Shown piece by piece: positions 5,265 to 19,816 of a stretch of 64,000 bases of DNA. The notes below the pieces were generated by a model, which ran no database searches, was not told the origin of the DNA, and saw only the letters and a program-made list of their open reading frames with translations. This DNA is from Solirubrobacterales bacterium (GTDB taxonomy: Bacteria; Actinomycetota; Thermoleophilia; Solirubrobacterales; 70-9): NCBI GenBank assembly GCA_035472275.1, contig DATIPH010000031.1:14983-78982 (forward strand), written 5' to 3'. A program made the translations under genes and the position numbers. Positions within the stretch are counted from its first letter, which is position 1, and each line of letters begins with the position of its first letter.

Positions 5265-6146
5265 TCAAACAGGAGCTACGAAAGCGGCGCCAGCATCGCC
5301 CAGGCCTTCGAGCGTAGAGACCTGTAGCGCTGGCGCGAAGACCGCAAACTCGCGACCGACATGCTGGACGGCCGCGCTGTGAGAAAGGCTGAACTCGGCA
5401 CAGCGGAGCCCCGCGTAAAGATCCTCTGTGACCCGCGGATCGGCGTCGTAGGTAAGAAACCAGCGGCCGCCTTGGCGAAGCAAGGTCGAGAGTCGGACGT
5501 GGTCTTCCCAGTCGAGCGTGTCTAGGTAAAGGTGATCGCCTTTCCCGAGATATGGCGGGTCGGCATAGATGAAGGAATCCGCCTCGCGGACGAACCTTGA
5601 AATGAGGTCAATGCCGTCAACTTCCTCTACCGAGACTCGGCTCTGGTACTGAGCAAGGGCGCGGATACGTTGCGTCAGGCGATCCTTGTCGAAGCGGGCG
5701 TCAATTTTCCACCGGCCGCTCTGGTCGTACCCTCCGATGGGCCGCGCGTCGAGAATCCCGGAACGATTGGTCCGGTTCAGAAAGAACAGAGCGAACCCGA
5801 GCGCTACGTCGTCGTCGGGGCGAGCCAGATAGACCTCGCGCTGCCGATGCCATTCCGCCACGTTGACCTCGCAGTCGCTAAGGCATTCGAGCAGCTCATC
5901 GGGTGATTCGAAGACCGCTCGCCAGAACGCGGCGATTCCGGGGTTCAAGTCATTGATGACGATTTCGTCCACGTACTCATTCACGAGCAGCCGAAGACCA
6001 ACTCCAGCACCGCCCGCAAACGGCTCGATATAGATCGAGGGCCGTGGATTCTGCTGATCGAGCAGGGCTCCAATGAAGGCCGCGAGTCTTCCCTTTCCAC
6101 CCGGATATCGAAGTGGGCTCAGGTATCGCGCCGGGACCCTAGGCAT
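5265..6146 (-). CDS. D12-class N6-adenine DNA methyltransferase (Dam-like)
   Basis: LRYPGGKGRL near the N-terminus, AdoMet motif EPFAGGAGVG, catalytic DPPY (FIYADPPYLGKG). Confidence 0.85.
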   Translation of the reverse strand: MPRVPARYLSPLRYPGGKGRLAAFIGALLDQQNPRPSIYIEPFAGGAGVGLRLLVNEYVDEIVINDLNPGIAAFWRAVFESPDELLECLSDCEVNVAEWHRQREVYLARPDDDVALGFALFFLNRTNRSGILDARPIGGYDQSGRWKIDARFDKDRLTQRIRALAQYQSRVSVEEVDGIDLISRFVREADSFIYADPPYLGKGDHLYLDTLDWEDHVRLSTLLRQGGRWFLTYDADPRVTEDLYAGLRCAEFSLSHSAAVQHVGREFAVFAPALQVSTLEGLGDAGAAFVAPV

Positions 6147-7428
6147 TGTCGTTCAGCGCTTGGAGGAACGGCTCAAGGTTCGCGGCGATCGAGCGAATAC
6201 CTGAGCCGTCGGGATGGAAGTGGGGATTGTGGACGAACCCGTGCAGCGTGGCGACCGCGAACATGCTCGTGCCGTCAGAAAGACCCTGGCGAACCCCCTG
6301 GAACCGTTCGTCCTTCTGAGAGGGATCGACGGCATAGAGCGCGCGCTGAATTCGTTTTTTCAGTTTCCCATCGGTGGCGAGGCCCTTTTTGGCGATGAAC
6401 TGATCTATCGAAAGTTCCAAGATCGCACGGGTCAACAGGGCTGCCGCATTGGGAAGTTGGTCCACATCGACGCTCCGGAACTCCCCCAGGATTAGGTCCG
6501 TGCGTCCCCCGAGTTGGCTCAGGTCAAGACCGGCGAAGGGCCGCGGCGGTTTTTTCGGCCGCTTCGGTTTCTGCGGTTTGGGTTTCGGTTTCGCCTGGTT
6601 GGAGGCGTCCAGGGGTTTTGCAGTTGCTCGGCGCTTGTTCGGGTCGGGTTCTGGCGTCTGTTCTAGGTATTTCTTTCGGTCGGGCTTTTTCCGAATTTCG
6701 CTAACACCGATTTCAGAAGCGAAATCTCCAAGGACGTGCTCCACGAAGGCCTCAAGCTCTTTGGCCGAAAACTGGAAGGACAGGGAGCCGTTGACATCTT
6801 CCATCCCGATTCGCTTGCGGAACTCTTGATCGAGGACAAGGCGGCCAAGGGTCGTGAGGCGTTTGTTGGCGACCTCGGCCACGAGCGTCTGGATCACGTT
6901 GTTCTTTGGGTAGGCCTTCGAGATCTCTTCCAGGAATCGGATAGCCGCCCCAGCCTCACGGCCGGGCTTGGCGAAGCGGTTCGCCGCCATGGCGTTCCAG
7001 GGAACAACGCCCGCACCCTGCGCCTCACCACCATGCCGCAGAACCATCCAGTGTTTTGCCTCTTTGCGGGAAGGGACGATGGCGCAATCAGCCTCGGTTG
7101 GCAGAGGCCCTTTCGCTGCCAGGCGCCGCATCTGTTTCTCGATCGGGGTCCCGTCAGCCAAGCTCGGATTGCTGAGGATCTTCACGACCGCGATCCGTCG
7201 ATTGCCCTCGACAACGGTGTAGTTCCGCCCAGCCTTGATAACCAGAAGTCGATCTATTGGGCTCAGGCTGTTTTTCAGAATGTCCGCAGCGAGAACTGCG
7301 AGCTTCTGTCGCTCGCTCGCGATGAGCGCCGCGATCGCATCTTTTTGAGATGGAACTTTTCCGTGGCGGGGATTTTCCGTATCGAGGAGCAGCTTTCCGA
7401 CCGGGATCGTCTTCATTTCAATGGCCAT
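6139..7428 (-). CDS. ParB/sulfiredoxin-fold N-terminal domain protein with KP-rich linker and unassigned C-terminal domain (429 aa)
   Basis: IPVGKLLLDTENPRH and VVEGNRRIAVVKIL are ParB-N motifs; the linker is KPKPKPQKPKRPKKPPRP. Start taken at ATG 7428 (MAIEMK), since the 134-codon upstream extension of the track ORF looks non-coding. The stop overlaps the methylase ATG by 8 nt. Confidence 0.75.
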   Translation of the reverse strand: MAIEMKTIPVGKLLLDTENPRHGKVPSQKDAIAALIASERQKLAVLAADILKNSLSPIDRLLVIKAGRNYTVVEGNRRIAVVKILSNPSLADGTPIEKQMRRLAAKGPLPTEADCAIVPSRKEAKHWMVLRHGGEAQGAGVVPWNAMAANRFAKPGREAGAAIRFLEEISKAYPKNNVIQTLVAEVANKRLTTLGRLVLDQEFRKRIGMEDVNGSLSFQFSAKELEAFVEHVLGDFASEIGVSEIRKKPDRKKYLEQTPEPDPNKRRATAKPLDASNQAKPKPKPQKPKRPKKPPRPFAGLDLSQLGGRTDLILGEFRSVDVDQLPNAAALLTRAILELSIDQFIAKKGLATDGKLKKRIQRALYAVDPSQKDERFQGVRQGLSDGTSMFAVATLHGFVHNPHFHPDGSGIRSIAANLEPFLQALNDNA

Positions 7429-7436
7429 GGCGCGGC

Positions 7437-7466
7437 AGTATCTCCGGTTACACAGATTTGCGTCAA
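7437..7466 (-). promoter_or_regulatory. Possible promoter of the ParB-like/methylase operon (TTGACG, 18 nt, GATACT)
   Basis: Hexamers read on the minus strand. The -10 element ends 8 nt before the ATG, implying a very short or absent leader. Confidence 0.3.
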
Positions 7467-7551
7467 CATCGTCCAGTGATCGGGAAGCTTCATGTCGGTT
7501 TTTAATTCGCCCTGCAGACCTCAGCGCGCGACCCCGCGAACGGCACCCGCT

Positions 7552-7583
7552 CTGTGCGCCAGTTTGTGCGCCAGCCGGCCCCG
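7552..7583 (+). repeat. Copy 2 of tandem-motif box CTGTGCGCCAGTTTGTGCGCCAGCCGGCCCCG
   Basis: Matches 4138-4168 at 21 of the 23 core positions. Lies about 125 nt upstream of the ParB-like start, next to the hairpin CCGGAAACAGCCGGTTTCC. Confidence 0.7.
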
Positions 7584-7893
7584 GAAACAGCCGGTTTCCA
7601 CCGGCCGCAACCGGGCGAAGCAACGCAGCGTTTTGGCCTGGGCAGCACGGCGCAAACCCAATGCTGATGCCGTAGAACGCCGCAAACCCAGTTGTGGAGC
7701 GGAAGTCCTGGGACAAGACTCGAAACACGATCCAGTGGTGGCCCGAATTCGTGAACTCCACGCTCAACGCTACAAATCCGGCTACGGAGCCGACTGATTC
7801 AGTATGCGTGAGGCGGCTCGAACGCGTCAAGGGGGCCGGCTTTCCCAGCGATGGGCTATCGGAATCGCAGCCGTTCTTTTCTAGGGCGTGAAC

Positions 7894-8691: not shown

Positions 8692-9534
8692 CTAGGGCTC
8701 GGACTGCTCGGCGGGCCGTGCCGGCGGTCCCGGCTGGCCCGGAACCTCCCGGCGCTCCCGTTCAAGTTCAGCTATCTCGTCGTCCGTGAGACCAGGGGAC
8801 AGCGCCTCTTCTTCAGCGCGTACTTCTCTCATTTTTTCATCACGGGCTATGTCTTTTCTCACTAGCTGCTCCCGGAGTTTCACCAGATCCGGGTCAGCGG
8901 CAGCCTTGCGCCCAATAGCGGTCCGATAGAGGCTCGCCTCTTCAGACCTACTGAGGCGCTGGTTGGTGTTCTCGGTGAGACTGGTCAGCCGCTCAAGGCG
9001 ATCCACGATCAGACCAAGGGTCCGCTCCTCAACATTGCCTCCTTGCAACTGGGCCAAACGCATTCCGTCTGAGATCGGGTTGTCGGCTGGATTGGTCAGC
9101 GATGCGCCGAGTTGCGTCTCCAGTTCTTGGCGGGCTACGTTGGCGCTGGCCAAGTCGTTGTGCTTGAAGAAGATGACTCGGGACTGGCCAAGATCAAAGG
9201 GCAGCTTGGTGTCTTCCTCGGCAATCAGGACGACCGGCAGCAGCGCGCCGTGGCGTACTGACAGCTCGTAGTAGACGTTGGGGTTGCCGCCGGTCAGGTC
9301 TGCTACAGCCGCTTTCGCTTCCAGGCAATGCTGGACGGCCTGAGAGGTGATCTGACCAGGCTCACCAACATCATCGGCGCGGAGGGTCTCGAGCCCGTGG
9401 GCCTCCGCGGCCGGTTTGACTATCCAGTCCCGTACGTCGTTCGAGCGCTTGCGGACATCAGTGCCTTGCTCGCCGATCGGCGCAATGAAGAAGCACTCCT
9501 GCTCAAAGTCAGCGGCCATTCCGTTGGCGACCAT
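8692..9534 (-). CDS. Rossmannoid NDT/TIR-like domain protein with charged coiled-coil tail (280 aa)
   Basis: CFFIAPIG strand, then ADLTGGNPNVYYELSVRHGALLPVVLI. This resembles the nucleoside 2-deoxyribosyltransferase/TIR-like core with a conserved Glu. The C-terminal 100 aa are rich in E/R/K. Confidence 0.6.
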   Translation of the reverse strand: MVANGMAADFEQECFFIAPIGEQGTDVRKRSNDVRDWIVKPAAEAHGLETLRADDVGEPGQITSQAVQHCLEAKAAVADLTGGNPNVYYELSVRHGALLPVVLIAEEDTKLPFDLGQSRVIFFKHNDLASANVARQELETQLGASLTNPADNPISDGMRLAQLQGGNVEERTLGLIVDRLERLTSLTENTNQRLSRSEEASLYRTAIGRKAAADPDLVKLREQLVRKDIARDEKMREVRAEEEALSPGLTDDEIAELERERREVPGQPGPPARPAEQSEP

Positions 9535-9573
9535 ATCCGCTGAGGGCGGGACTGCTCATCTCAGGTTTTTGGG

Positions 9574-10191
9574 TCAGCCGCCCGGCGATTCAAAGCCCAG
9601 CAGCGAGATAGTGGCTCGAATGGTCTTGGGATCTTTGGCTTTGGCCAGGCGGGAAGCACTCTCGCCCTGAATCTCCAGCACCTGATCGAGCGCGCCGCTC
9701 AGTAGCGTCATGGCGTCCTCCCAGCCTTGGTCGTCGAGGTTGAGCGGCGTGCAACTCAGGTGGCGGTCGTCGCGGGAATCGAAGGTCTCGTTCTCCAAGG
9801 CAGCCTTGGAGGCGTCATTGATCATCTGAAGACCGGCAACCGAGACGCCATTCTTGGCGTCGTCGGAGAGGGACGCCCAGTTCTCCGCGTTGAGAAAGGA
9901 GCGGGTGACGCCGCGAAAGAAGTGCTCCATTGCCCCCCGGCGCTGCTCGGCTTTGACCAGTTCGACGCAGCCCAGTTCTTCCAGCACACCGACGTGGTAG
10001 CTGACGTTGCCGAGTGGCTCGTCAAGCTCAAGATGAAGTTCCTTGGGGGAGGCCACTCGTTCGTTGAGGATCGCCAGGGCGCGGGCACGCAGGGGGTGTC
10101 CGACGGCCTTGGCCAGGCGGCTGTTGAAGCCGGCATATAGCTCGGATGACGGCTGGTCGCTGCTCTTGGCTCGGTCCTTCTTGGGGGGCAC
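9574..10191 (-). CDS. ArsR-like winged-helix protein with extra C-terminal domain (205 aa)
   Basis: AKAVGHPLRARALAILNERVASPKELHLELDEPLGNVSYHVGVLEELGCVELV is an ArsR/SmtB-type wHTH. Confidence 0.75.
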   Translation of the reverse strand: MPPKKDRAKSSDQPSSELYAGFNSRLAKAVGHPLRARALAILNERVASPKELHLELDEPLGNVSYHVGVLEELGCVELVKAEQRRGAMEHFFRGVTRSFLNAENWASLSDDAKNGVSVAGLQMINDASKAALENETFDSRDDRHLSCTPLNLDDQGWEDAMTLLSGALDQVLEIQGESASRLAKAKDPKTIRATISLLGFESPGG

Positions 10192-10523
10192 GGGGATACA
10201 GCTCCTTCAATAGTCGAGGGAACGATGAGCAATCGACTGTATTCGTGCAACCGGCTTGTGTCCAACTGCAAACGGCCCGAGTTTCTTCACTAGTGGAGGT
10301 CTCTCTACTATTGCCGCTTGGGCTGGGTTCTTAGCGCTCTAGCGAGCGCCTGGCGCTCAGCCGCGCCCTTTCGAGAGCGAAAGGGGGTGACAAAAGTGGC
10401 TATCAAGATCACGGAGCGCGTTGTTCCGGTCCTCGTCACGAAGCTCGGCTAGAGCCGGCAACAGCAGTAGCGGATGGTCTGCCCCAGTCTGGGCGGAGCA
10501 TCCGTCTCTCCGATCGGCGGCGC

Positions 10524-10877
10524 TCAGGACTTCGACGGGCGGTCCTCGATCGCCGCCTTGACCTCGCGGACCTCGCGATCGAGTTGGTCAAGACGAGCGA
10601 GCACCTGCTTCTCGAACGAAGCGCCGCCGCTGACTCGTCCGGCGGCCTGGAGCAGTTCGGTGGCGTCGACCTTGAGGGCGGCGGCCACCCGTTCGATGAT
10701 CTCGTCGGAAGGCGGGCCTTGCTTGCCTAGCTCCAGCCGGGAGAGGTTGGAGGGGCTCATCGGGATGCGCTCAGCCAGCTCGGCCAGGGTGTCGCCGCGC
10801 TTGCGCCGAAGGCGGCGCACCAGGACGCCGAGGGTCTCGGCGCGCTGAGTCTCTTTCTGTCCCTTGGGGCTGGCCAT
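10524..10877 (-). CDS. XRE-family HTH regulator with C-terminal coiled coil (117 aa)
   Basis: LRRKRGDTLAELAERIPMSPSNLSRLELGKQ is an HTH motif. Confidence 0.8.
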   Translation of the reverse strand: MASPKGQKETQRAETLGVLVRRLRRKRGDTLAELAERIPMSPSNLSRLELGKQGPPSDEIIERVAAALKVDATELLQAAGRVSGGASFEKQVLARLDQLDREVREVKAAIEDRPSKS

Positions 10878-11051
10878 GCTCCGCCAATCCCCTGACTACC
10901 GGCTAATAGTGGAAAACCCTAACCTATTCCCGCAAGTCGGGCTATGGCCCGGAATGCGGTAACGTCCGCACCGTGCCTGGCCGGGCTCCACAAAGTCACC
11001 CCCTCGGCCAGGCCACCACTTCAGGCGGGCAGCGACAGAAGGGCGGGAGCA

Positions 11052-11651
11052 ATGCGTGGCAGAGCGTGGCGGCGGTATGCAGTCCTAGCGGTGATCACCG
11101 GCTTGGCGGCGTGGGCGACGGTGCCGGCGACGAGCGTCACCGCAGCGCCGCCTCTCGAGCAAGCCTGCGTCAAGGCCGGACTGGTGCCGCCCGTGGTCAA
11201 AGAAGCCGTCATGGAACACCCCGGCAGCAAACGCGGCCGATTGCAGTCTGTCTCCACCAGCATTGAAGTCCCGGCGATGCCGGAAGAATGCTGGGGCATC
11301 TACCAGCGGCTGAGCGCCGCTGTCACCCAGATTCAAGACCCGCTGCACCACGCCCGCTGGTACAACACCAGCGGCTGTCGCTTCACGGCCAAGGAATGCG
11401 TCGGCATCAGCAAGCCGAACTGGTGGCAGTTGTCCTGGGCCAAGGACGAAGGCGGAATCGCCGGGCTTTACTCGCCGCCGACCGGCCATGAGGGAAAGTT
11501 CCTCTACTACGCCTGCACGCCCGGCAAGGGAGTCACCCACGTCCGGCTGCTGCTGAGGCGCACGATCAGGAGCGTCAGCACGCACCAAGTGATTGGGCGC
11601 AGCCGGATCAATGTCCGCCCAGTGGAAGTGCGAGGGAGGAAGCCATGCTGA
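11052..11651 (+). CDS. Secreted Cys-containing hypothetical protein, paralog A
   Basis: Signal peptide RRYAVLAVITGLAAWATVPATSVTA. Shares CV(K/E)AGL, P(E)xC and QIQ landmarks with the next gene. GGGAG Shine-Dalgarno before ATG 11052. Confidence 0.6.
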   Translation: MRGRAWRRYAVLAVITGLAAWATVPATSVTAAPPLEQACVKAGLVPPVVKEAVMEHPGSKRGRLQSVSTSIEVPAMPEECWGIYQRLSAAVTQIQDPLHHARWYNTSGCRFTAKECVGISKPNWWQLSWAKDEGGIAGLYSPPTGHEGKFLYYACTPGKGVTHVRLLLRRTIRSVSTHQVIGRSRINVRPVEVRGRKPC

Positions 11652-12286
11652 GGCGGGGATACCCCGCCCTGGTGATCATCGCGGGGCTGTTGGCCGGGCT
11701 GACGGTGTCGATGACGGCACCGTCAGCCAGAGCGGAAGACGAACTCGGGCAGACCTGTGTCGAAGCTGGCTTGGCTCGGCCGGGAGCGCTGCACGCCATT
11801 GAAATGCACCGTGCCGGTTTGCGACCGGGCACGCCTGGTCACTACCACTCGCAGGGGGTCTCCGGGGTCTTGCTGTTCGGGGCACTGCCGGAAGGCTGCG
11901 TGCCGTCAGTGGTTCGGACGGCGACGGCGCAGATTCAGATGTGGCGGGGGCGCTGGGTGAATGTCGGAGCAAGGCACGGCAACATGGAAGCCCCCGGCAA
12001 CAGCGAACGAGCTACCAAGCTCTTTGCTGGCCCGACCCATGCGTGGCCAAGCTACGTCTTCAATGAATGTGGAGCTGGTGGGAAGTGGCTGAAAGTCCGA
12101 GCAGTCGTCGGGCTCCAGGTCAAGGACAGCAGCAGCCATGCAGTGCTGGGAGCTCAGCGCTACGTGTGGCCGGTGCAGGTGCATGGAAGCTGCCGGTTGG
12201 CACGGATCAGCAAGAAGCAGACGGCCAGCTACAAAGAAGAATGGGGCCAAGGGAGTGGGAGGGTGCGAGTCGATTCTCCGGGTTGA
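11645..12286 (+). CDS. Secreted Cys-containing hypothetical protein, paralog B
   Basis: Signal peptide ALVIIAGLLAGLTVSMTAPSARA. GAGGGAGGA Shine-Dalgarno. Overlaps paralog A by 7 nt. Confidence 0.6.
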   Translation: MLRRGYPALVIIAGLLAGLTVSMTAPSARAEDELGQTCVEAGLARPGALHAIEMHRAGLRPGTPGHYHSQGVSGVLLFGALPEGCVPSVVRTATAQIQMWRGRWVNVGARHGNMEAPGNSERATKLFAGPTHAWPSYVFNECGAGGKWLKVRAVVGLQVKDSSSHAVLGAQRYVWPVQVHGSCRLARISKKQTASYKEEWGQGSGRVRVDSPG

Positions 12287-12520
12287 TCGCGCGGTTTCGG
12301 GTTGAACTGAGGGCGAAACGAGCCAAGGGCGTCCGGAGGCATAGACACACTGCTGTCCTGTGAGCCCCCTCTCACTTGGCTTGAGCACTAGCCGAGTCGG
12401 CAGCTTCGTCTTGGTAGCCTGCCGCGATTCGTGCGACCCCCTGCCTAGATCTGTGTTGATTCCAGGTATGCACAGACAAAACCTTGTATTTACACAAGAG
12501 TTCTCGCATACTTAAAATAA

Positions 12521-12907
12521 ATGGAGAAATTTCCTGCCAATACCGCTAGCGTTCCCGCATCTCAGGAGTCTGCGCTGCGGTCGTTCTTTGTCCGCCTGCT
12601 GGGACCCCTTGTACGGCAACCTCAGCGGGAGGACGACAAAGCAGTGAGCAACGGCGAAGGTGAACAGGCAGCATCGACGGGCATCACGCTTGAAGATGTC
12701 CAAGCAGAGTTGAACAGAGTGGACGAGGAGCGTCGGAATCGGACGCCCGACTGGATGCCTCAGCCCTTGGAGCTTGGACCACAGCGCTACCCCGACCCCA
12801 GGCTCTGGGGTCCGGAGAATGGGACCGAGGACGAGAGCTACCGAGACTCTCTGAAGCTCCTTCCCAATTTTGAGCCTGCTCACGTGTCGGCCAAGCGCAA
12901 CCGCTAG
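12521..12907 (+). CDS. Hypothetical acidic protein (128 aa)
   Basis: Track ORF, first gene of the A/T-rich cassette, preceded by an A/T-rich promoter-like stretch. Confidence 0.45.
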   Translation: MEKFPANTASVPASQESALRSFFVRLLGPLVRQPQREDDKAVSNGEGEQAASTGITLEDVQAELNRVDEERRNRTPDWMPQPLELGPQRYPDPRLWGPENGTEDESYRDSLKLLPNFEPAHVSAKRNR

Positions 12908-12932
12908 CTCTCCCTCCTTCATCGCTAGCTCT

Positions 12933-14777
12933 ATGAGTTGGGTGGACGCGCTTCGGCGCCTGATGGGTTGGTCTGATCCTGTAGCTGAGTTCAACTTCGA
13001 TATCACCGTGGATCGTGTCGGCTGCCTCGCAGATTTGATCACCCGGCCAACCCGCTATGTACAGCGGCTGGCCGAGCAGCTGTCGTTTGTGCCGACGGGT
13101 GGGCAGCAGTGGGTGCGCACCCTTCAGATTCAGATCCCAGAAACGAGTGGCTCGAAGCAGCCTGACTGGTGGATCATCCCCCTCGGACAGTTCAGTCGCA
13201 AACGCTTTGCCGACTTGGTGGCGCGCGACGCACATGGTCAGCGCCTCAATCTGCTTACGCGAAACCAGCACGGGGACGCTCTCACCGATGTGTTGACCAC
13301 GAACTATGCCTCACAGCTTGATCCTGCCTCGCGGGCGCTGCTGCCTGAGGAACAGCCGAGAGAAGCAGCGCTGCTCCTGCGATCACTCCTCTTTGAGTAC
13401 CTAACGAATCTCGATGTGCCGCCCGACGACGATGACTGGACGCCGGGAGCTAGCAAGCCCGTGCATCAGGTCTCTCAACAATACAAGTCTCTCTTGCTAG
13501 CCCTCAAACTGTCCGACTCCGACAGCGACGCTCGCGCCCAGCAGTTCTTCAAAGAAGTTGCGGAGCAGACCCGGACCGCTCCCTATCTCTGCTGGGTCAA
13601 AGCATCACCCGGCGAGGTAATCAGCGTGCAGGTGACCTACTCCTCAACGGATCCGAAGCATAGCCTCGCACTCGGCAGCTTGTGGGATCTGTTCTTGTCG
13701 ATACTCAAAGGTCTGGTTCCGCTATGGGGTAAAGCCCGGTCGATACGTGCTCGCTGGTTTCGGCAGTATGGACTTGCGCCAATTGACTACGCCTTCGATA
13801 TTCCAAATCAGGCGAGTACTGGCAGCTACTACCTGAGGCTGCAACCTCCAGACAACACCATTTGCTCGTATCTCGATTGGGCGGTTGATGATTCGTTCAA
13901 TGAGGAGAAGGAAGCAGACGGCGCGTTTCCTTCGGCACACATTCACAACAACGACCCAACTCATCCCGAAACCGGCACCCCAGCCGATAAAGGCGATAGG
14001 GCAAGCGAGGCTATCCGCGCCTATCTGCGCTGTGCGCCCCATCACCACAAGCAGATTCTTGGCGCAACGATGCTCAATGTGGTGGTCGTGTGGCTCCTTG
14101 CAAAGGGAGAGCTTCCAATCGGATTTGGAGAGCCATTGCAAGCCCTCATCGCTGCGGCTCCGTCAATTCTCATCGCGTTTCTCGCGCAGCAGCAACGTCA
14201 CTACTACTCACAGGTGATGCGACGGCAACGGGCGATCCTGTGGACCTACTTGTTTATCAGCGTGTCGTTCCTTGTCAGTGTGGCTTTTAGCGCGCAGAGT
14301 CACTCGACGCATGAGAGTGGATTGCCGTGGCTGGCCAACATTGCTGCGTGGGTACTGGCGATCAGCAGTACCGGAGTCTTCTTCTGGCACTTGCCACTAG
14401 GAGGTAGCTATGAACGGGTCATCAAATATCTCACTGATCGCAAGTGGGAAGTCGCTCAGCCTTCGCAAGAGAGCCTAGGACCTGTACGTGCCTTTGGATT
14501 CGACGTGCGGAAGCAGTGGTGGAAGTGGTGGAACGTCAATTTCACGACGAAATGGGAATGCTACGCGGACGCAGTGCGGCAGTACTGCTGCATAATTTGC
14601 ATTCTTGTCGTTGCGTCTATGGGTGGCGCTGCGTTTCTGCTCAGTGAATTTGCGGACTTTTCGCTGAAGCCACAGCCACGCCCCCCTAGCGGGCGCCCAG
14701 TGTTCACCAATGGGCAGGCACCGACGTCGTTGCCGCGTCCAGACACCGAGCGAATAGACTTAAGCCCAACGTGGTGA
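12933..14777 (+). CDS. Large hypothetical membrane protein (614 aa): about 400-aa soluble N-domain plus 4-5 C-terminal TM helices
   Basis: Long ORF in an A/T-rich region, where spurious long ORFs are unlikely. Hydrophobic helices include LGATMLNVVVVWLLA, IAAAPSILIAFLA, ILWTYLFISVSFLVSVAF, IAAWVLAISSTGVFFW and IICILVVASMGGAAFLL. ATG 12933 preferred. Confidence 0.7.
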   Translation: MSWVDALRRLMGWSDPVAEFNFDITVDRVGCLADLITRPTRYVQRLAEQLSFVPTGGQQWVRTLQIQIPETSGSKQPDWWIIPLGQFSRKRFADLVARDAHGQRLNLLTRNQHGDALTDVLTTNYASQLDPASRALLPEEQPREAALLLRSLLFEYLTNLDVPPDDDDWTPGASKPVHQVSQQYKSLLLALKLSDSDSDARAQQFFKEVAEQTRTAPYLCWVKASPGEVISVQVTYSSTDPKHSLALGSLWDLFLSILKGLVPLWGKARSIRARWFRQYGLAPIDYAFDIPNQASTGSYYLRLQPPDNTICSYLDWAVDDSFNEEKEADGAFPSAHIHNNDPTHPETGTPADKGDRASEAIRAYLRCAPHHHKQILGATMLNVVVVWLLAKGELPIGFGEPLQALIAAAPSILIAFLAQQQRHYYSQVMRRQRAILWTYLFISVSFLVSVAFSAQSHSTHESGLPWLANIAAWVLAISSTGVFFWHLPLGGSYERVIKYLTDRKWEVAQPSQESLGPVRAFGFDVRKQWWKWWNVNFTTKWECYADAVRQYCCIICILVVASMGGAAFLLSEFADFSLKPQPRPPSGRPVFTNGQAPTSLPRPDTERIDLSPTW

Positions 14778-14784
14778 TCGTCGA

Positions 14785-15654
14785 CTAGCTGATCCCAACC
14801 CTCTCCCCAAACCCCTGACGGTCCCACTCGCCAACTTGGGCCAAAATAAAGCGCAGCTCTCTTGCTTGCTCTTTGGTTAGGTCGCCGGTCCAGCCGGCTA
14901 GACGAATGAGCGAGTCAGAGTTGTATGTGGCGGTACCGTGGAGAATCGCTTTGCCGTATTGCTCCATGTAGGCGCTTAGCGTGGTGAGTAGCCGAGCCAG
15001 ATACCACAGAGCGCCCACCGATGCATCAGCGTGCTCATGGGCCTTCTCGGGGTCACCTCGGCTGGCTTCCCGGGCAATCACTTCTGCTCGCAACCCGTAG
15101 ACATCACTCCAAATGCGAGAGAGCAAAACCTCATGGTCGGCAGTATCTGAATGAGCAATCTGTTCCTCGGCGATGACCGGCGTGTGACCTGACGCTTCAA
15201 ATGGCTCGCCGTCCTGGGCTCGCCGCACATACTGCAAGCTGTCCTGATGCAGTAGCCAAGCCACTTCTCCGAGTATCTGTGGCTCGATCCGCTTGCGGAA
15301 GTGATGTAGCTCGTAATCGAGGAGGTTGGCGGCATGGCGACGACGCTCAGTCAGCGTCCGGCCACCGCGGGCAACCACGAATAGTCCAGTCGCCGCTTCG
15401 CGGCGCTGCTTCGGCACTATCGCTTTCAGCGTTCCCTTCAACAGGCGTTCTAGTGCATCGACGCGGGCAAGCCGGTCACCTGACCGAACACTGCGGGCGA
15501 TCACCCCATTGAGTTGCAGCAGATCATCGGGCACCTGATCCGGTCGCAGGGGGATCCCCGTGCGCAACACGGTCTTGAGTGCCTCAACAGTGCCTCCCAG
15601 TTCGGCTCCCTCGGGTGGCTGAGACGGTGGTTTCTTGCGCTTCGGGCTACCCAT
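14785..15654 (-). CDS. Hypothetical protein (289 aa), convergent with the membrane protein gene
   Basis: Track ORF. ATG 15654 (MGSPKRKKPP) preferred. No family recognised. Confidence 0.55.
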   Translation of the reverse strand: MGSPKRKKPPSQPPEGAELGGTVEALKTVLRTGIPLRPDQVPDDLLQLNGVIARSVRSGDRLARVDALERLLKGTLKAIVPKQRREAATGLFVVARGGRTLTERRRHAANLLDYELHHFRKRIEPQILGEVAWLLHQDSLQYVRRAQDGEPFEASGHTPVIAEEQIAHSDTADHEVLLSRIWSDVYGLRAEVIAREASRGDPEKAHEHADASVGALWYLARLLTTLSAYMEQYGKAILHGTATYNSDSLIRLAGWTGDLTKEQARELRFILAQVGEWDRQGFGERVGIS

Positions 15655-15656
15655 CC

Positions 15657-15697
15657 ATGCCCAGCATATGCCCACATTGGGAACTTTTAGATGCCCA
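15657..15697. promoter_or_regulatory. Divergent promoter region with three direct ATGCCCA boxes
   Basis: ATGCCCA at 15657, 15668 and 15691, so the spacings are 11 and 23 nt. Lies between divergent starts at 15654 (-) and 15722 (+). Confidence 0.4.
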
Positions 15698-15721
15698 GTA
15701 ACAACCCGGAGGGTCGGAGCC

Positions 15722-15994
15722 ATGACCCCACCACGCATTTGTCCCCCACCGCCGACCGCCCCCGACTGCGGTCTCTTCGACCAGCGCCTCAGCTACGTCC
15801 CGGATGAGCCGCTGCGCCGGGCCGTTCTCATGGACCGGCGCAAGTCCCGCGACCTGGCCGCCTTCGTGTGGGCCGACTTCAACCGTGACCGCCGCCCGGT
15901 GGCTGAGCCAAAGGCTCCCACCCCCACGGTGCCACCGCTTCCCAGGCCGGCGCTGCCCTCCACTTCGATGATCGAGAAAGGAGTTCTGCGATGA
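15722..15994 (+). CDS. Hypothetical Pro-rich protein (90 aa)
   Basis: Inner ATG of the track ORF. First gene of a tightly packed plus-strand operon. Confidence 0.45.
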   Translation: MTPPRICPPPPTAPDCGLFDQRLSYVPDEPLRRAVLMDRRKSRDLAAFVWADFNRDRRPVAEPKAPTPTVPPLPRPALPSTSMIEKGVLR

Positions 15995-16308
15995 ATGAAC
16001 TGCCAGCCCGGCTCGACGGGCTGCGGCCCTCCCGTCAACTGACGCGGGCGACTGCTGCCCAGGAACGAACTGAGTTGGCCGTCTTCGAGCACCATCTTGC
16101 CGCCCGCTATCTCGCAGAGATCGACCGCATCGACTCGACTGCGATCGCAGATGTTGCTGAAGCTGCCCTCGGGGAGGAGATGCGGGTTCTCGACTGGGGC
16201 CTGAGTGAAGCCGGTGACAGCGTTACCAAAGCTGAGTTGGTCTCGCGCAAGGTCAGCTTGCAATCGCGGATCAACAACGCCCGGATCGCCCGGCGCTTCG
16301 GGGGGTGA
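15991..16308 (+). CDS. Hypothetical protein (105 aa)
   Basis: 4-nt overlaps with both neighbours suggest an operon. Confidence 0.5.
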   Translation: MNELPARLDGLRPSRQLTRATAAQERTELAVFEHHLAARYLAEIDRIDSTAIADVAEAALGEEMRVLDWGLSEAGDSVTKAELVSRKVSLQSRINNARIARRFGG

Positions 16309-16577
16309 AGGCGATGTTCGAGCTACTACTGACGATCGTCGCCGGCTCCGGAGCAGGCGCACTCTGTGGCGGCCTGCTGGCCGCCTGGCTGTTGCGGCGT
16401 CACCACCGGACTGAGGACGGTCAGCCCGACGCGTTGGACCCTTGGGTATCGGCCGAAATCGACCGGGCGGCTGTGGAGTTCGCCAACCGCAATGGGCGGC
16501 CGGAGACCGCCCCGCTCATTGCCGACAAGCTCCACCTGTTGCATCACCTGGGCCAGCGTCAAGGAGGCTCAGAATGA
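16305..16577 (+). CDS. Small membrane protein (90 aa)
   Basis: N-terminal TM helix LLLTIVAGSGAGALCGGLLAAWLL. Confidence 0.5.
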   Translation: MKAMFELLLTIVAGSGAGALCGGLLAAWLLRRHHRTEDGQPDALDPWVSAEIDRAAVEFANRNGRPETAPLIADKLHLLHHLGQRQGGSE

Positions 16578-16813
16578 TCTGGGTACTGCTCTTGCTGGCG
16601 GTGGCCTTCGTCGTCTTCCTGGCGTGGCGGAACGGTCAGTCACCGCCACAGCAACGAGACCCAGAAGCCGAACTGAAAGCGGCCCTGGAGTTGCACGCCA
16701 TCCGGCGTCGGCTGGAAGCAGCCGAGCTAAAGCATCAACAGCGCCAGGACGCTGCCCGGCTCAGGCGGGACATTCAGGAGTCCCTGGACGAGTCCGACGG
16801 TCGTGTCTCCTAG
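16574..16813 (+). CDS. Small membrane protein (79 aa)
   Basis: AAGGAGG Shine-Dalgarno 7 nt before ATG 16574. TM helix IWVLLLLAVAFVVFLAW. Confidence 0.6.
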   Translation: MIWVLLLLAVAFVVFLAWRNGQSPPQQRDPEAELKAALELHAIRRRLEAAELKHQQRQDAARLRRDIQESLDESDGRVS

Positions 16814-17318
16814 AACGGCACCCACCGGCTTTCGGCATGAGCCCACGGTCGGCGGCAGCGTCGAGTGGTACACGCCGCCGGAGCTGTTCGCTGCGCTCGG
16901 GCTGACCTTCGACCTCGACCCGGCATCGCCGCCTGGCGGGCTGCCCTGGGTGCCGGCGGTCCAGCACTTCTCCCGTGATGACGATGGTCTGAGTCGTCCC
17001 TGGCATGGCCGGGTCTGGCTCAACCCACCCTACGGTCGGCGAGTTGGCGAGTGGCTCGACCGTTTGGCTGTCCACGGTGATGGCATGGCCCTGGTCTTCG
17101 CCCGCACCGACACCGCCTGGTTCGAGCGGGCTTTCCGGGCTGCCACCGCTGCCTGCTTCGTCCGCGGACGCCTGCACTTCATCAGCGGCGATGGCAGGCC
17201 GGCGCCGGGGCCAGCCGCGGCACCCTCGCTGCTGCTGGCTTACGGCCTGTCATGTTCCCTGGCGTTAGCTGCCTCGGAACTTGGGCGAGTCTGCATCGTG
17301 CCGAAGGATGCTCCGTGA
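16803..17318 (+). CDS. Phage-type DNA N6-adenine methyltransferase (small Dam family)
   Basis: EWYTPPELFAALGLTFDLDPASP followed by VWLNPPYG, the hallmark of the phage Dam-type family. Confidence 0.75.
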   Translation: MSPRTAPTGFRHEPTVGGSVEWYTPPELFAALGLTFDLDPASPPGGLPWVPAVQHFSRDDDGLSRPWHGRVWLNPPYGRRVGEWLDRLAVHGDGMALVFARTDTAWFERAFRAATAACFVRGRLHFISGDGRPAPGPAAAPSLLLAYGLSCSLALAASELGRVCIVPKDAP

Positions 17319-17485
17319 AAGGGCTGGGCTCGACGGCGCTGGTGGCAATGCTCCTGCTGCTTGCCCTAGCGGCGGCCACGCCGTCGCTCATCGCCCTCAG
17401 TGGCGCCCTACTGCCGCTAGTGGTCGTGTTGGCCGTGGCGATCGTCCTGGTTCGCCTGGTCCTTTTCCACACCCGGAATTGGTGA
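17315..17485 (+). CDS. Small two-helix membrane protein (56 aa)
   Basis: GTG overlaps the methylase stop. The sequence is almost entirely hydrophobic (LVAMLLLLALAAA, LLPLVVVLAVAIVLVRLVLF). Confidence 0.45.
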   Translation: MKGLGSTALVAMLLLLALAAATPSLIALSGALLPLVVVLAVAIVLVRLVLFHTRNW

Positions 17486-17648
17486 GGCACAGCGTGATTG
17501 CCCTGCTGTCAATTCCACGCCTTGACCCTCCAACTGAAGGCATCGGACAATGGAAGGTTCGCGTTGGCACCTGGGTTGGTTCCTCACTCCCTCATCCCCG
17601 AAGACGTGGGCGAATGGCAGCACAAGAAACGGGAGAGGAGGTTCCACG

Positions 17649-17804
17649 ATGCCAAGAAATAAATCAACCAAGCCACGCCTGACGCGGGTCAGCGTCGAGC
17701 CAGAGGAGCGAGACGAAATTGACTGGGACCGCTTCGCCTGGGCGCTTCTTCAGCACTGCCGGCTCAAGATTGAAGCTGAAGAGAAGGAAGCGACCGAGCT
17801 ATGA
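17649..17804 (+). CDS. Hypothetical small protein (51 aa)
   Basis: GGGAGAGGAGG Shine-Dalgarno before ATG 17649. The stop overlaps the next gene's ATG. Confidence 0.45.
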   Translation: MPRNKSTKPRLTRVSVEPEERDEIDWDRFAWALLQHCRLKIEAEEKEATEL

Positions 17805-19816
17805 AGCGCCGCTCACTCGACTGGTTCTGCTTGCGCTTTCCGCGCGACCTTGATGAGCCAGCGGTGCTGGCGGCTCTGGCTTCGCTCTCGGGCTTGCCAC
17901 ACAGTGCCCGAACACGACTGGAACTGACGGCGACGGAGACCGGCACTGGCCACCGGCTGGCCCTGAATTCGGCAGCGCTGGAGCCGGTCATCGCCGGGCT
18001 GCGAGCTGCCATGCCGAGTTTGCGCATTGAGCCGATGGACGAAACAGAGCCCAGCTCTGGTGATCGACTCCGGTTGCAACTGTCGCCCCGCGTCAGCGCC
18101 ATTCGCGCCGATGACCTCGGGGCTATCAGCGCCGGACTGCTGTCGGCGCTGTTCCCTCTTCATAAAGGGGAGGTCATTCGACTGAGCTGGGACGTGCGGC
18201 CCGGTGTCCGGCCAGCAATTCCCCTTGAACCTGAACTGAAGCTGGACGGCCGGCGAAGAGTCTTACGCGACAAGCTGGCCGGCCCCGGCCTAAGGGCCAC
18301 GGGCGAGCTGTGCATCAGCGCCAGTAGTCCTGGTCGTCGCCGTCGTCTCATGCAGCGGGTGGTTTCGACCTTGCGTAGCCTCGGCACGCCAGCGGGACGG
18401 CTGGTGGCAGAGCCGGTCTGGCTGGGCCAGTTGTCCTGGCTCCTCGGGCGACGTGGTGACTTCTTTGGAATTCGGGAACTCGCCGCTTGCATTGGCTGGC
18501 CCATCGGCAGCCCGGACATTCCGGGACTGGAACTGGGAGCCGCCCGACGTTTGCCGCCGGGTCGGGCGCTGCCCCGGACTGGCCGACTGCTCGGACACAG
18601 TGATTTTGCCGACTCGTTGTTTGGCCCGGCTCGGCCGGTGGCGCTGTCGGCCAAGGCCTCAACGCGCTCCCTTCACATTTTGGGCCCGACCGGCACCGGC
18701 AAGTCCTCCCTTCTTTGTGACTTGGTGCCAGACAACCGCGTCGAGGATGTCGTCTACCTGGACCTGACCGACCAAACCCATGCGGTCGGCTTCAATCCCT
18801 TTGCTTCCGGCGCCGACCCCTCGCTCATCGCTGACCAACTCGGGGAACTCTTCCAGCGGCTTTGGGAAGACTTCTGGGGACCGAGGACGGCCCGCCTAAG
18901 CCACATGGGACTGCTCACGCTGGCACGGCGGAAGGGCTCAACGCTGCTCGACTTGCCCCGGCTGTTTCAGGATGACCAGTTCCGGGCGGCGGTTTTGGCC
19001 GGGCTCGATGACCCGGTGGGGCTTGGGCCGGACTGGCAGTGGTTCGGCGGTCTCAGTCCAGCCGAGGCCGTCAACGTCACCAGCCCCTTGCTCAACAAGG
19101 CCCGGCAGTGGGTGGCCCGGCCGAACATTCGAGCCATAGTCGGCCAGGCCAGGCCACGAATCACCATGCAGCAAATCATTGCCAAGCGCAAGGTGCTGCT
19201 GGTGCATCTGCCCAAGGGTTTGATCGGGCAGGAGACGGCCCAACTTTTTGGCTGCTTGGTGCTGACTGCCGCCTGGCAGGCGCTAGCTGAACGTACCCGG
19301 CTACCGCCGGAGAAACGGGCTCCCTTCGGCGTCTACGTCGATGAGGTGCAGGACTTCGCGGCTGCCCCAATCCCGTGGGACGAGCTGTTCGCCCAGGGCC
19401 GAAAGTACGGCTGCGCACTGACCGTGGCCCATCAGAATTTGGCCCAACTCCCCAAAGTCTTGCGGGAGGTCATCCTGGCCAACGCTCGCTCCAAGGTGGT
19501 CTTCACGCTTGGCGCGGAAGATGCCCGCATCATGGAGCGGACCTTTGCGCCGAGCCTCAGTGCCGGCGACCTCCAGGCACTCGACGCCTATGCCGTCGCT
19601 GCCATGTTGGCGCTCGATGACGGCAGTACGGCCCGGCCGGTGACGCTCACCACGCCACCGCCGCCAGAGCCCGTGGGCAGTGACGAGGCAGTCCGGGTCG
19701 CCTCGCATCAAAACTACGGTCGGTCACGGGCTCAGCTTGAGCAGGAGTTCCGGCGCCGAGTTGTGCGGCCTGTCACCGAGGCGCCGATTGGGCGGCGGAA
19801 GCGGAGTGGCTCATGA
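17801..19816 (+). CDS. TraD/VirD4-like (type IV coupling protein-like) P-loop ATPase
   Basis: Walker A ILGPTGTGKSS and Walker B FGVYVDEVQDF. The C-terminal ARSKVVFTLGAEDARIMER resembles TraG/TraD-family proteins. Confidence 0.75.
   Translation: MKRRSLDWFCLRFPRDLDEPAVLAALASLSGLPHSARTRLELTATETGTGHRLALNSAALEPVIAGLRAAMPSLRIEPMDETEPSSGDRLRLQLSPRVSAIRADDLGAISAGLLSALFPLHKGEVIRLSWDVRPGVRPAIPLEPELKLDGRRRVLRDKLAGPGLRATGELCISASSPGRRRRLMQRVVSTLRSLGTPAGRLVAEPVWLGQLSWLLGRRGDFFGIRELAACIGWPIGSPDIPGLELGAARRLPPGRALPRTGRLLGHSDFADSLFGPARPVALSAKASTRSLHILGPTGTGKSSLLCDLVPDNRVEDVVYLDLTDQTHAVGFNPFASGADPSLIADQLGELFQRLWEDFWGPRTARLSHMGLLTLARRKGSTLLDLPRLFQDDQFRAAVLAGLDDPVGLGPDWQWFGGLSPAEAVNVTSPLLNKARQWVARPNIRAIVGQARPRITMQQIIAKRKVLLVHLPKGLIGQETAQLFGCLVLTAAWQALAERTRLPPEKRAPFGVYVDEVQDFAAAPIPWDELFAQGRKYGCALTVAHQNLAQLPKVLREVILANARSKVVFTLGAEDARIMERTFAPSLSAGDLQALDAYAVAAMLALDDGSTARPVTLTTPPPPEPVGSDEAVRVASHQNYGRSRAQLEQEFRRRVVRPVTEAPIGRRKRSGS

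Follow-up and report, generated by a model that had tools for sequence, protein, structure and literature searches.

Mobile accessory modules of two genes, in which a cytoplasmic component is paired with a multi-pass membrane protein, are known from phages, as in RexA/RexB of phage lambda and gp30/gp31 of the mycobacteriophage Sbash (PMC6426596). The cytoplasmic loop that connects transmembrane (TM) helices TM2 and TM3 of Sbash gp31 is functionally critical (PMC6426596). Here we describe a bacterial module that is likewise composed of two genes and likewise mobile, and that by analogy may share the logic proposed for these systems, in which infection aborts once a sensor has opened a channel in the membrane. 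It lies in a 64,000-nucleotide (nt) stretch of contig DATIPH010000031.1 of a Solirubrobacterales bacterium, referred to below as the window, and consists of the genes for an acidic cytoplasmic protein of 128 amino acids (aa) and a 614-aa inner-membrane protein, which together form a conserved operon at positions 12521-14777. The module is exchangeable cargo, found mostly on integrative elements from Solirubrobacterales-type actinobacteria, whose genes include those for a coupling-type ATPase, a Replic_Relax protein and a serine recombinase. In the window the host island is such an element, 18.6 kb in length and with all three of these components, which bears out the location within a mobile island proposed in a first-pass annotation of this DNA.

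The association of the two genes was conserved well beyond the window. A small gene was found directly 5' of every examined homologue of the 614-aa gene, and in 18 of 22 distinct loci this gene was demonstrably homologous to that of the 128-aa protein (a BLASTP network linked 16 of them, and tblastn added two). In a distant marine subfamily, the upstream gene encodes an acidic protein of 59-70 aa with a loosely similar P-L...G...D...W-P segment. The 128-aa protein of the window is mildly acidic, with a pI of 5.0 and 22 D+E versus 17 K+R, and has no TM or hydrophobic segment. As a family, the partner proteins have a basic/hydrophobic N-terminal segment, then an acidic Gly/Ser-rich linker, and then a conserved C-terminal motif, P-L-x-L-G-P-Q-R-Y-x-D-P-x-x-W-x-P; they are of low complexity and evolve fast. 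A Pfam scan found no known antitoxin DNA-binding domain in the 128-aa protein.

The 614-aa protein had been taken for an orphan, a description that had to be abandoned. Its homologues fall into 64 clusters at 31-49% identity, without a Pfam domain, and a profile built from 36 members retrieved 222 representative relatives among 1.84 billion proteins. All of the homologue clusters are nameless or "hypothetical" save one (P0035), which the Joint Genome Institute (JGI) named "putative flippase GtrA". The distant relatives keep the motifs of the N-terminal domain and have divergent multi-helix C-termini, and one of them (P0295) bears a C-terminal PAP2 domain (E 9.5e-18). The 614-aa protein is a member of an uncharacterised membrane-protein family. 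The first-pass annotation had recognised no family for the 128-aa and 614-aa proteins or for the 289-aa protein encoded next to them, and this was upheld, as Pfam, NCBIfam, PADLOC and PHROGs gave nothing significant for any of the three. When Pfam was searched with the 36 family members, no weak family recurred consistently, and GtrA was not among the families listed for most of them. The SLAC1 match of three of the 36 members (best E 4e-4) and the match to the GtrA/DPMS flippase family (PF04138; E 0.43, 11.2 bits versus a cut-off of 26.1) were judged to be hydrophobic noise. Neither the single sequence nor the profile matched anything in the PDB beyond coiled or designed-helix noise at E>=0.08.

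The structure of the 614-aa protein was predicted with AlphaFold from 36 sequences, and the model was confident, with a predicted local distance difference test (pLDDT) score of 83 and a predicted template modelling score of 0.79. In keeping with the architecture proposed earlier, a soluble part of about 370 residues is followed by five hydrophobic helices. The hydropathy peaks lie at residues ~374-398, 400-418, 434-452, 466-484 and 552-570, and the modelled helices at 372-390, 400-420, 426-456, 466-489 and 540-573. Following the N-terminal region, the model has four close TM helices, two cytoplasmic helices, a long fifth TM helix and a disordered Pro-rich tail. Within the N-terminal domain, pLDDT is mostly 85-97 by block, with a few blocks at ~56-79 and residues 341-360 at 54-55. 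Foldseek was used to compare the model with the PDB and BFVD, and the best matches, to ribophorin, M1 peptidase and Cys-loop receptors, had E>=3e-3 and TM-scores of at most ~0.22 and were set aside as resemblances of layout. The M1 peptidase matches had TM-scores of 0.14-0.22 with a root-mean-square deviation of ~10 A, and the top BFVD match had an E of 3.2e-3 and a TM-score of 0.16.

Inspection of the sequence revealed no signal peptide in the 614-aa protein. The loops at residues 391-399 and 457-465 contain no K or R and the loop at 421-433 contains four R, so that the positive-inside rule is obeyed. From the absence of the signal peptide and from these loop charges, we infer that the ~370-residue N-terminal domain is cytoplasmic. 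An alignment of the family showed R91, D94, R110, H113, G114, Y218-L219-C220, D240, G280, P283, S298, Y300, P306 and H336 to be invariant in the soluble domain. A further set, H372-K373, H423-Y424, R430, R433, W437, Y439 and G490, is invariant at the cytoplasmic face of the membrane, where R422 and L489 are nearly so, and N382 and S479 are invariant within helices.

Many homologues (P0012, P0015, P0017 and P0059, for example) share the extracytoplasmic C-terminal tail T-x-W-P-S-x-x-C-K-x-C-N-(V/I)-x-(L/F)-R-F-x-P, a motif that the protein of the window does not have. The motif points to a tag that would be disulfide-bonded or surface-exposed and would mark a subfamily.

The first-pass annotation had presented the genes for the 128-, 614- and 289-aa proteins as one A/T-rich cassette. 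All three open reading frames (ORFs) were found where it had placed them, with 25 nt between the first two and 7 nt between the latter two (Table 1). The 614-aa ORF has alternative starts at GTG 12942 (611 aa) and TTG 12870 (635 aa), and the version in the protein database is that of 611 aa. The G+C content of the three-ORF block is 58.0%, compared with means of 66.3% for the window, 62.0% for the island and 68.0% outside the island. The 3365-nt windows of minimum G+C across the 64 kb start at 11951-12351 and overlap the block, which is, as claimed, the most deviant in the stretch. The G+C content at third codon positions is 0.65 in the 614-aa gene, 0.74-0.80 in the backbone genes of the island and 0.92 in the flanking host genes. 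The deviation is therefore real, although at 58.0% G+C the label "A/T-rich" applies in the relative sense and not the absolute one.

The grouping of the three genes into a single cassette did not stand. The 289-aa gene lies directly upstream of the backbone transfer operon, which starts at ~15991 and comprises small genes, the coupling-type ATPase, the Replic_Relax protein and the recombinase, and it is transcribed divergently from that operon. Homologues with 60-77% identity occupy the same position in two other loci, L019 and L020, and in the latter, from Svornostia abyssi, the backbone and the 289-aa gene are present without adjoining homologues of the 128-aa and 614-aa genes. Because of this shared position and the lack of the module in L020, the 289-aa gene belongs to the backbone: it is a lineage-specific backbone gene of the element and lies outside the module. 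Its product has at least 139 homologue clusters, with identities up to 78%. The named relatives come from metagenome-assembled genomes of Solirubrobacterales and Solirubrobacteraceae, from Baekduia and Svornostia abyssi and from a few other actinobacteria, giving a range of Thermoleophilia plus some other actinobacteria. More distant elements carry another divergent gene in this slot, as in L001 and L034, where it encodes an HTH_3 plus N_BRCA1_IG protein. The AlphaFold model of the 289-aa protein is all-alpha with a pLDDT of 91, and Foldseek found no fold match to it in the PDB at E<=1e-3. The protein is presumably a regulator of the element.

The distribution of the module was determined in an even set of 401 genomes of the order, which includes 13 of the same genus. 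The 614-aa family was present in six of the 401 genomes and in none of the 13, and the coupling-type ATPase was present in 29; the genome of the window was the one in which both occurred. Among the 22 distinct loci with the module, the coupling ATPase was located within 10 kb of it in 11, at least one backbone marker was near it in 14, and the other eight had no such marker within 10 kb. The arrangement seen in the window, with the 3' end of the module abutting the divergent backbone gene, was shared by seven loci (the window, L001, L010, L012, L018, L019 and L034). In 22 of 23 loci the module had a lower G+C content than either flank. The related copies had intact open frames with no internal stops, arguing against the disruption of related copies that had been raised as a possible outcome. 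Across eight elements, pairwise identities of the 614-aa protein and of the ATPase gave a Spearman rho of 0.00 (28 non-independent pairs). For instance, L001 and L012 share 57% identity in the 614-aa protein and 36% in the ATPase, and L005 and L012 share 37% and 75%, respectively. Since the two sets of identities are uncorrelated, the module is swapped between elements and not inherited with them.

On one JGI contig (3300079101; L033), the module stands alone at 8907-11902, a segment of ~3 kb that separates fliJ from fliI and lies on the opposite strand. The segment has 53-60% G+C, versus 70-76% for the flagellar operon, which otherwise looks intact. There was no recombinase within 10 kb of this copy, and a search of the locus for terminal repeats gave short repeats at chance level.

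Two further loci were unusual in other respects. L018 (DASSHG010000009.1), labelled Candidatus Saccharimonadales, contains the module and a coupling ATPase 61% identical to that of the window, and looks like either a mis-binned actinobacterial contig or a case of cross-phylum transfer. In L017, the ATPase homologue at 6303-7837 is split into three overlapping pieces (6303-7028, 6928-7353 and 7323-7577) and the module is intact; this copy of the backbone may be frameshifted or decaying.

By analogy with known systems, we favour, with a probability of roughly 35%, the view that the module is a conflict system in which a cytoplasmic sensor domain is joined to a five-helix membrane effector under the control of a small partner. 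It would serve in abortive infection or would exclude phages or rival elements. The part of the sensor would fall to the 370-residue cytoplasmic domain, which would dock on a conserved basic vestibule (H372/K373, H423/Y424 and R430/R433) where the five-helix bundle faces the cytoplasm. Upon a trigger, the sensor would open or oligomerise the bundle, and membrane integrity would collapse. The partner would bind the sensor domain via the P-L-x-L-G-P-Q-R-Y-x-D-P-x-x-W motif, and would either pass on the trigger or, like an antitoxin, keep the 614-aa protein inactive. We favour a conflict role because the operon is conserved, patchy, borne as cargo, independently exchanged, found as a stand-alone unit in L033 and low in G+C; because defence genes adjoin it and its N-terminal domain is paired with divergent membrane parts, one of them with PAP2; and because by its predicted topology the large domain is cytoplasmic, the location that an infection sensor would have. 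An abortive-infection or exclusion effector had been suggested as an analogy in the first-pass annotation, the observation behind which is confirmed and the interpretation partly supported, and such a role is consistent with the behaviour of a swappable cargo beside known defence genes. A bolder version, that the module represents a new membrane-acting type of defence or exclusion system with a fold absent from the PDB and BFVD, in which a cytoplasmic sensor is fused to its own five-helix pore and restrained by a small disordered partner, the pair circulating as a swappable cassette on integrative elements in uncultured soil actinobacteria, seems to us somewhat doubtful.

Several results weigh against a conflict role. 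No family of PADLOC-DB v2 (5027 models) matched any of the three proteins at E<=0.1, in a scan that recovered the neighbouring PD-Lambda-5 A/B genes at 2e-102 and 1e-99 as a positive control, and the module likewise lacks similarity to families of Pfam, NCBIfam and PHROGs. Foldseek searches with the model of the 614-aa protein gave no fold relative at E<=1e-3 in the PDB or BFVD. No homologue was found in 50,697 phage records or 72,556 plasmids by tblastn, or in IMG/VR by a pattern scan. Any cargo that a mobile element carries can be expected to have defence-type neighbours, and the many invariant R, D, H, C and Y residues look as well suited to a catalytic or ligand site as to a sensor.

Such residues would fit a membrane-bound enzyme that acts on a lipid or lipid-linked substrate of the inner leaflet and remodels the envelope, for example in surface exclusion or adaptation, with the partner as cofactor or chaperone. 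Its active site would be made up of the cytoplasmic domain and the conserved basic residues at the membrane face, and the invariant R91, D94, R110, H113, C220, D240, H336, H372, K373, H423, Y424, R430 and R433 are all located in the soluble domain or at the membrane interface. The PAP2 lipid-phosphatase domain of P0295 and the flippase name given to P0035 also speak for an enzyme, but the GtrA match is spurious (E 0.43, 11 bits versus 26), no enzyme fold was matched (TM-score 0.14-0.22 for M1 peptidase), and genes for glycosyltransferases or lipid pathways are not conserved near the module in the examined loci; we consider the enzyme unlikely. An addiction module of the toxin-antitoxin type would instead stabilise the element, the partner being a labile acidic antitoxin and the 614-aa protein a membrane toxin, so that a cell that lost the element would die or be arrested. 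Order and spacing of the genes suit this, with a small acidic protein and then a larger one after 25 nt, as do the low complexity and fast evolution of the partner, the selfish-looking nature of a module capable of stand-alone insertion and independent exchange, and the PIN/MazE-type modules in neighbouring cargo positions. A protein of 614 aa with a conserved soluble domain of 370 residues, however, far exceeds what a membrane toxin needs, 28 of the 29 coupling-ATPase genomes in the sample of 401 lack the 614-aa family, and the partner has no known antitoxin DNA-binding domain, making addiction less likely still.

That the module directly adjoins the backbone in seven loci, each time in one slot and one orientation, would be in accord with a role in the element's own transfer, for instance as a membrane pore or a mating component that functions with the coupling-type ATPase. 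This alternative is largely refuted by the distribution and is very improbable: the module is not in most elements (29 genomes with the ATPase and six with the family overlap in one of 401), the 614-aa protein does not diverge along with the backbone (rho 0.00), eight loci lack a backbone gene within 10 kb, one copy is inside a flagellar operon, and the module is missing from L020, where both the backbone and the 289-aa gene are present. An ordinary housekeeping envelope protein, lying in the island by chance, has nothing in its favour except that the 614-aa protein is a membrane protein. It had been named as the finding that would overturn the initial interpretation, and it is already refuted by the occurrence of the family in six of the 401 genomes and none of the 13 congeners, by the variable contexts of its homologues and by its foreign composition. 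Patchy occurrence, variable contexts and independent exchange together rule out both housekeeping and core-transfer roles. The remaining probability falls to some function other than a conflict role or the alternatives considered here.

The cargo region of the window also holds a TIR/NDT-like gene in addition to the PD-Lambda-5 pair (Table 1). Defence-type neighbours in other loci included a type II restriction-modification system, a PD-Lambda-3_B hit, an IetA-like gene, a BrxH-like protein and PIN/MazE. This census of neighbourhoods was made with a crude ORF caller of our own and had no matched control, and we do not claim an enrichment of defence genes. In L004, the region at 13938-19412, which adjoins a copy of the module, encodes a DNA cytosine methylase, a GHKL-type ATPase (HATPase_c_3) and an Mrr_cat-DEAD/ResIII helicase; it looks like a restriction-like defence cluster within the cargo region.

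Upstream of the module, the promoter-like element ends so close to the ATG of the 128-aa gene that a short-leader or leaderless mRNA is possible for this gene, although CATACT at 12507-12512 suggests a different -10 element as an alternative. The spacer between the two module genes is flanked by a direct repeat. The 128-aa gene has its stop codon inside the first copy, and the second copy extends as far as the start codon of the 614-aa gene. Inspection of the sequence 5' of ATG 12933 revealed no Shine-Dalgarno-like run. A scan of positions 12000-16000 with Rfam gave a single, sub-threshold match, to the PreQ1-III riboswitch at 15790-15891 (26 bits versus a gathering threshold of 63, E 0.03), which was taken as chance.

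Table 1. Features of the module and its surroundings, numbered from the first position of the window.
Feature	Positions	Strand	Remarks
PD-Lambda-5 A/B	5265-7830		same cargo region of the island; PADLOC
Intergenic stretch 5' of the module	12287-12520	+	54% G+C
Promoter-like TTTACA-18-TAAAAT	12489-12518	+	consensus match; 2 nt before ATG of 128-aa gene
128-aa ORF	12521-12907	+	gene of the small acidic partner
25-nt spacer	12908-12932	+	flanked by direct repeat CGCTAGCTCT, copies at 12904-12913 and 12923-12932
614-aa ORF	12933-14777	+	gene of the membrane protein
Soluble N-terminal domain, residues 1-371	12933-14045	+	mixed beta/alpha
Membrane module, residues 372-573, five TM helices and Pro-rich tail	14046-14777	+	hydropathy, AlphaFold
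289-aa ORF	14785-15654	-	or 317 aa from ATG 15738

If the conflict role is correct, the module would be an uncatalogued membrane-effector system from the poorly studied and mostly uncultured Solirubrobacterales/Thermoleophilia. Whatever its function, it is a clean two-gene unit with invariant residues that can be used for mutagenesis, it defines a cargo slot that, in a family of integrative elements, lies beside the presumed regulator gene, and it provides evidence that the cassette moves between elements independently of the backbone. Confident AlphaFold models were obtained for both the 614-aa and the 289-aa protein, and these match nothing solved. The annotation of the island is corrected as well, in that the 289-aa gene is now grouped with the transfer backbone and not with the cargo. 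The module is a good candidate for experimental screening, yet one of many uncharacterised cargo modules.

Among known systems, pentameric ligand-gated ion channels have a layout similar to that predicted by the model, with a beta-rich N-terminal domain, a four-helix bundle, an intracellular helical insert and a last helix. The N-terminal domain of the module, unlike that of these channels, would be cytoplasmic and thus on the opposite side of the membrane, a signal peptide is absent, and Foldseek against the PDB gave TM-scores of 0.09-0.21 at E>=0.026, so that the Cys-loop-receptor fold was not found.

The module resembles type II toxin-antitoxin and abortive-infection cargo pairs in that a small acidic gene comes first, with tight spacing, and in being patchy, independently exchanged and low in G+C; the two genes share a strand and are 25 nt apart, with the 128-aa gene upstream, and they recur as a pair in 18 of 22 loci. 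The module differs from these pairs in the very large size of its putative toxin, which is embedded in the membrane, in the lack of a recognisable DNA-binding fold in the partner, and in showing no homology to a catalogued pair. PD-Lambda-5 and the TIR/NDT-like gene share with the module the cargo region of the 18.6-kb element and a similarly low G+C, and their sequences are unrelated to it; PD-Lambda-5 is a characterised family, whereas the module has no characterised relative.

With respect to RexAB and Sbash gp30/gp31, the soluble domain is here fused to the membrane part in one chain of 614 aa, and the partner is separate, acidic and encoded upstream. DUF4747, the RexA-like domain of these systems (PMC6426596), was not matched by the 128-aa or 614-aa protein in Pfam (E<=1) or PADLOC. 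In place of a RexB-like downstream protein with four TM helices there is a protein of 614 aa with five, which has no RexB-type match in Pfam or PADLOC. Because neither DUF4747 nor the RexB-like features were found, the module is placed, on its sequence characters, outside the RexAB/Sbash gp30-gp31 family. As in Sbash gp31, where the cytoplasmic loop is critical, the TM2-TM3 loop of the module (QQQRHYY...RRQR) stands out, being among the most conserved segments of the 614-aa protein.

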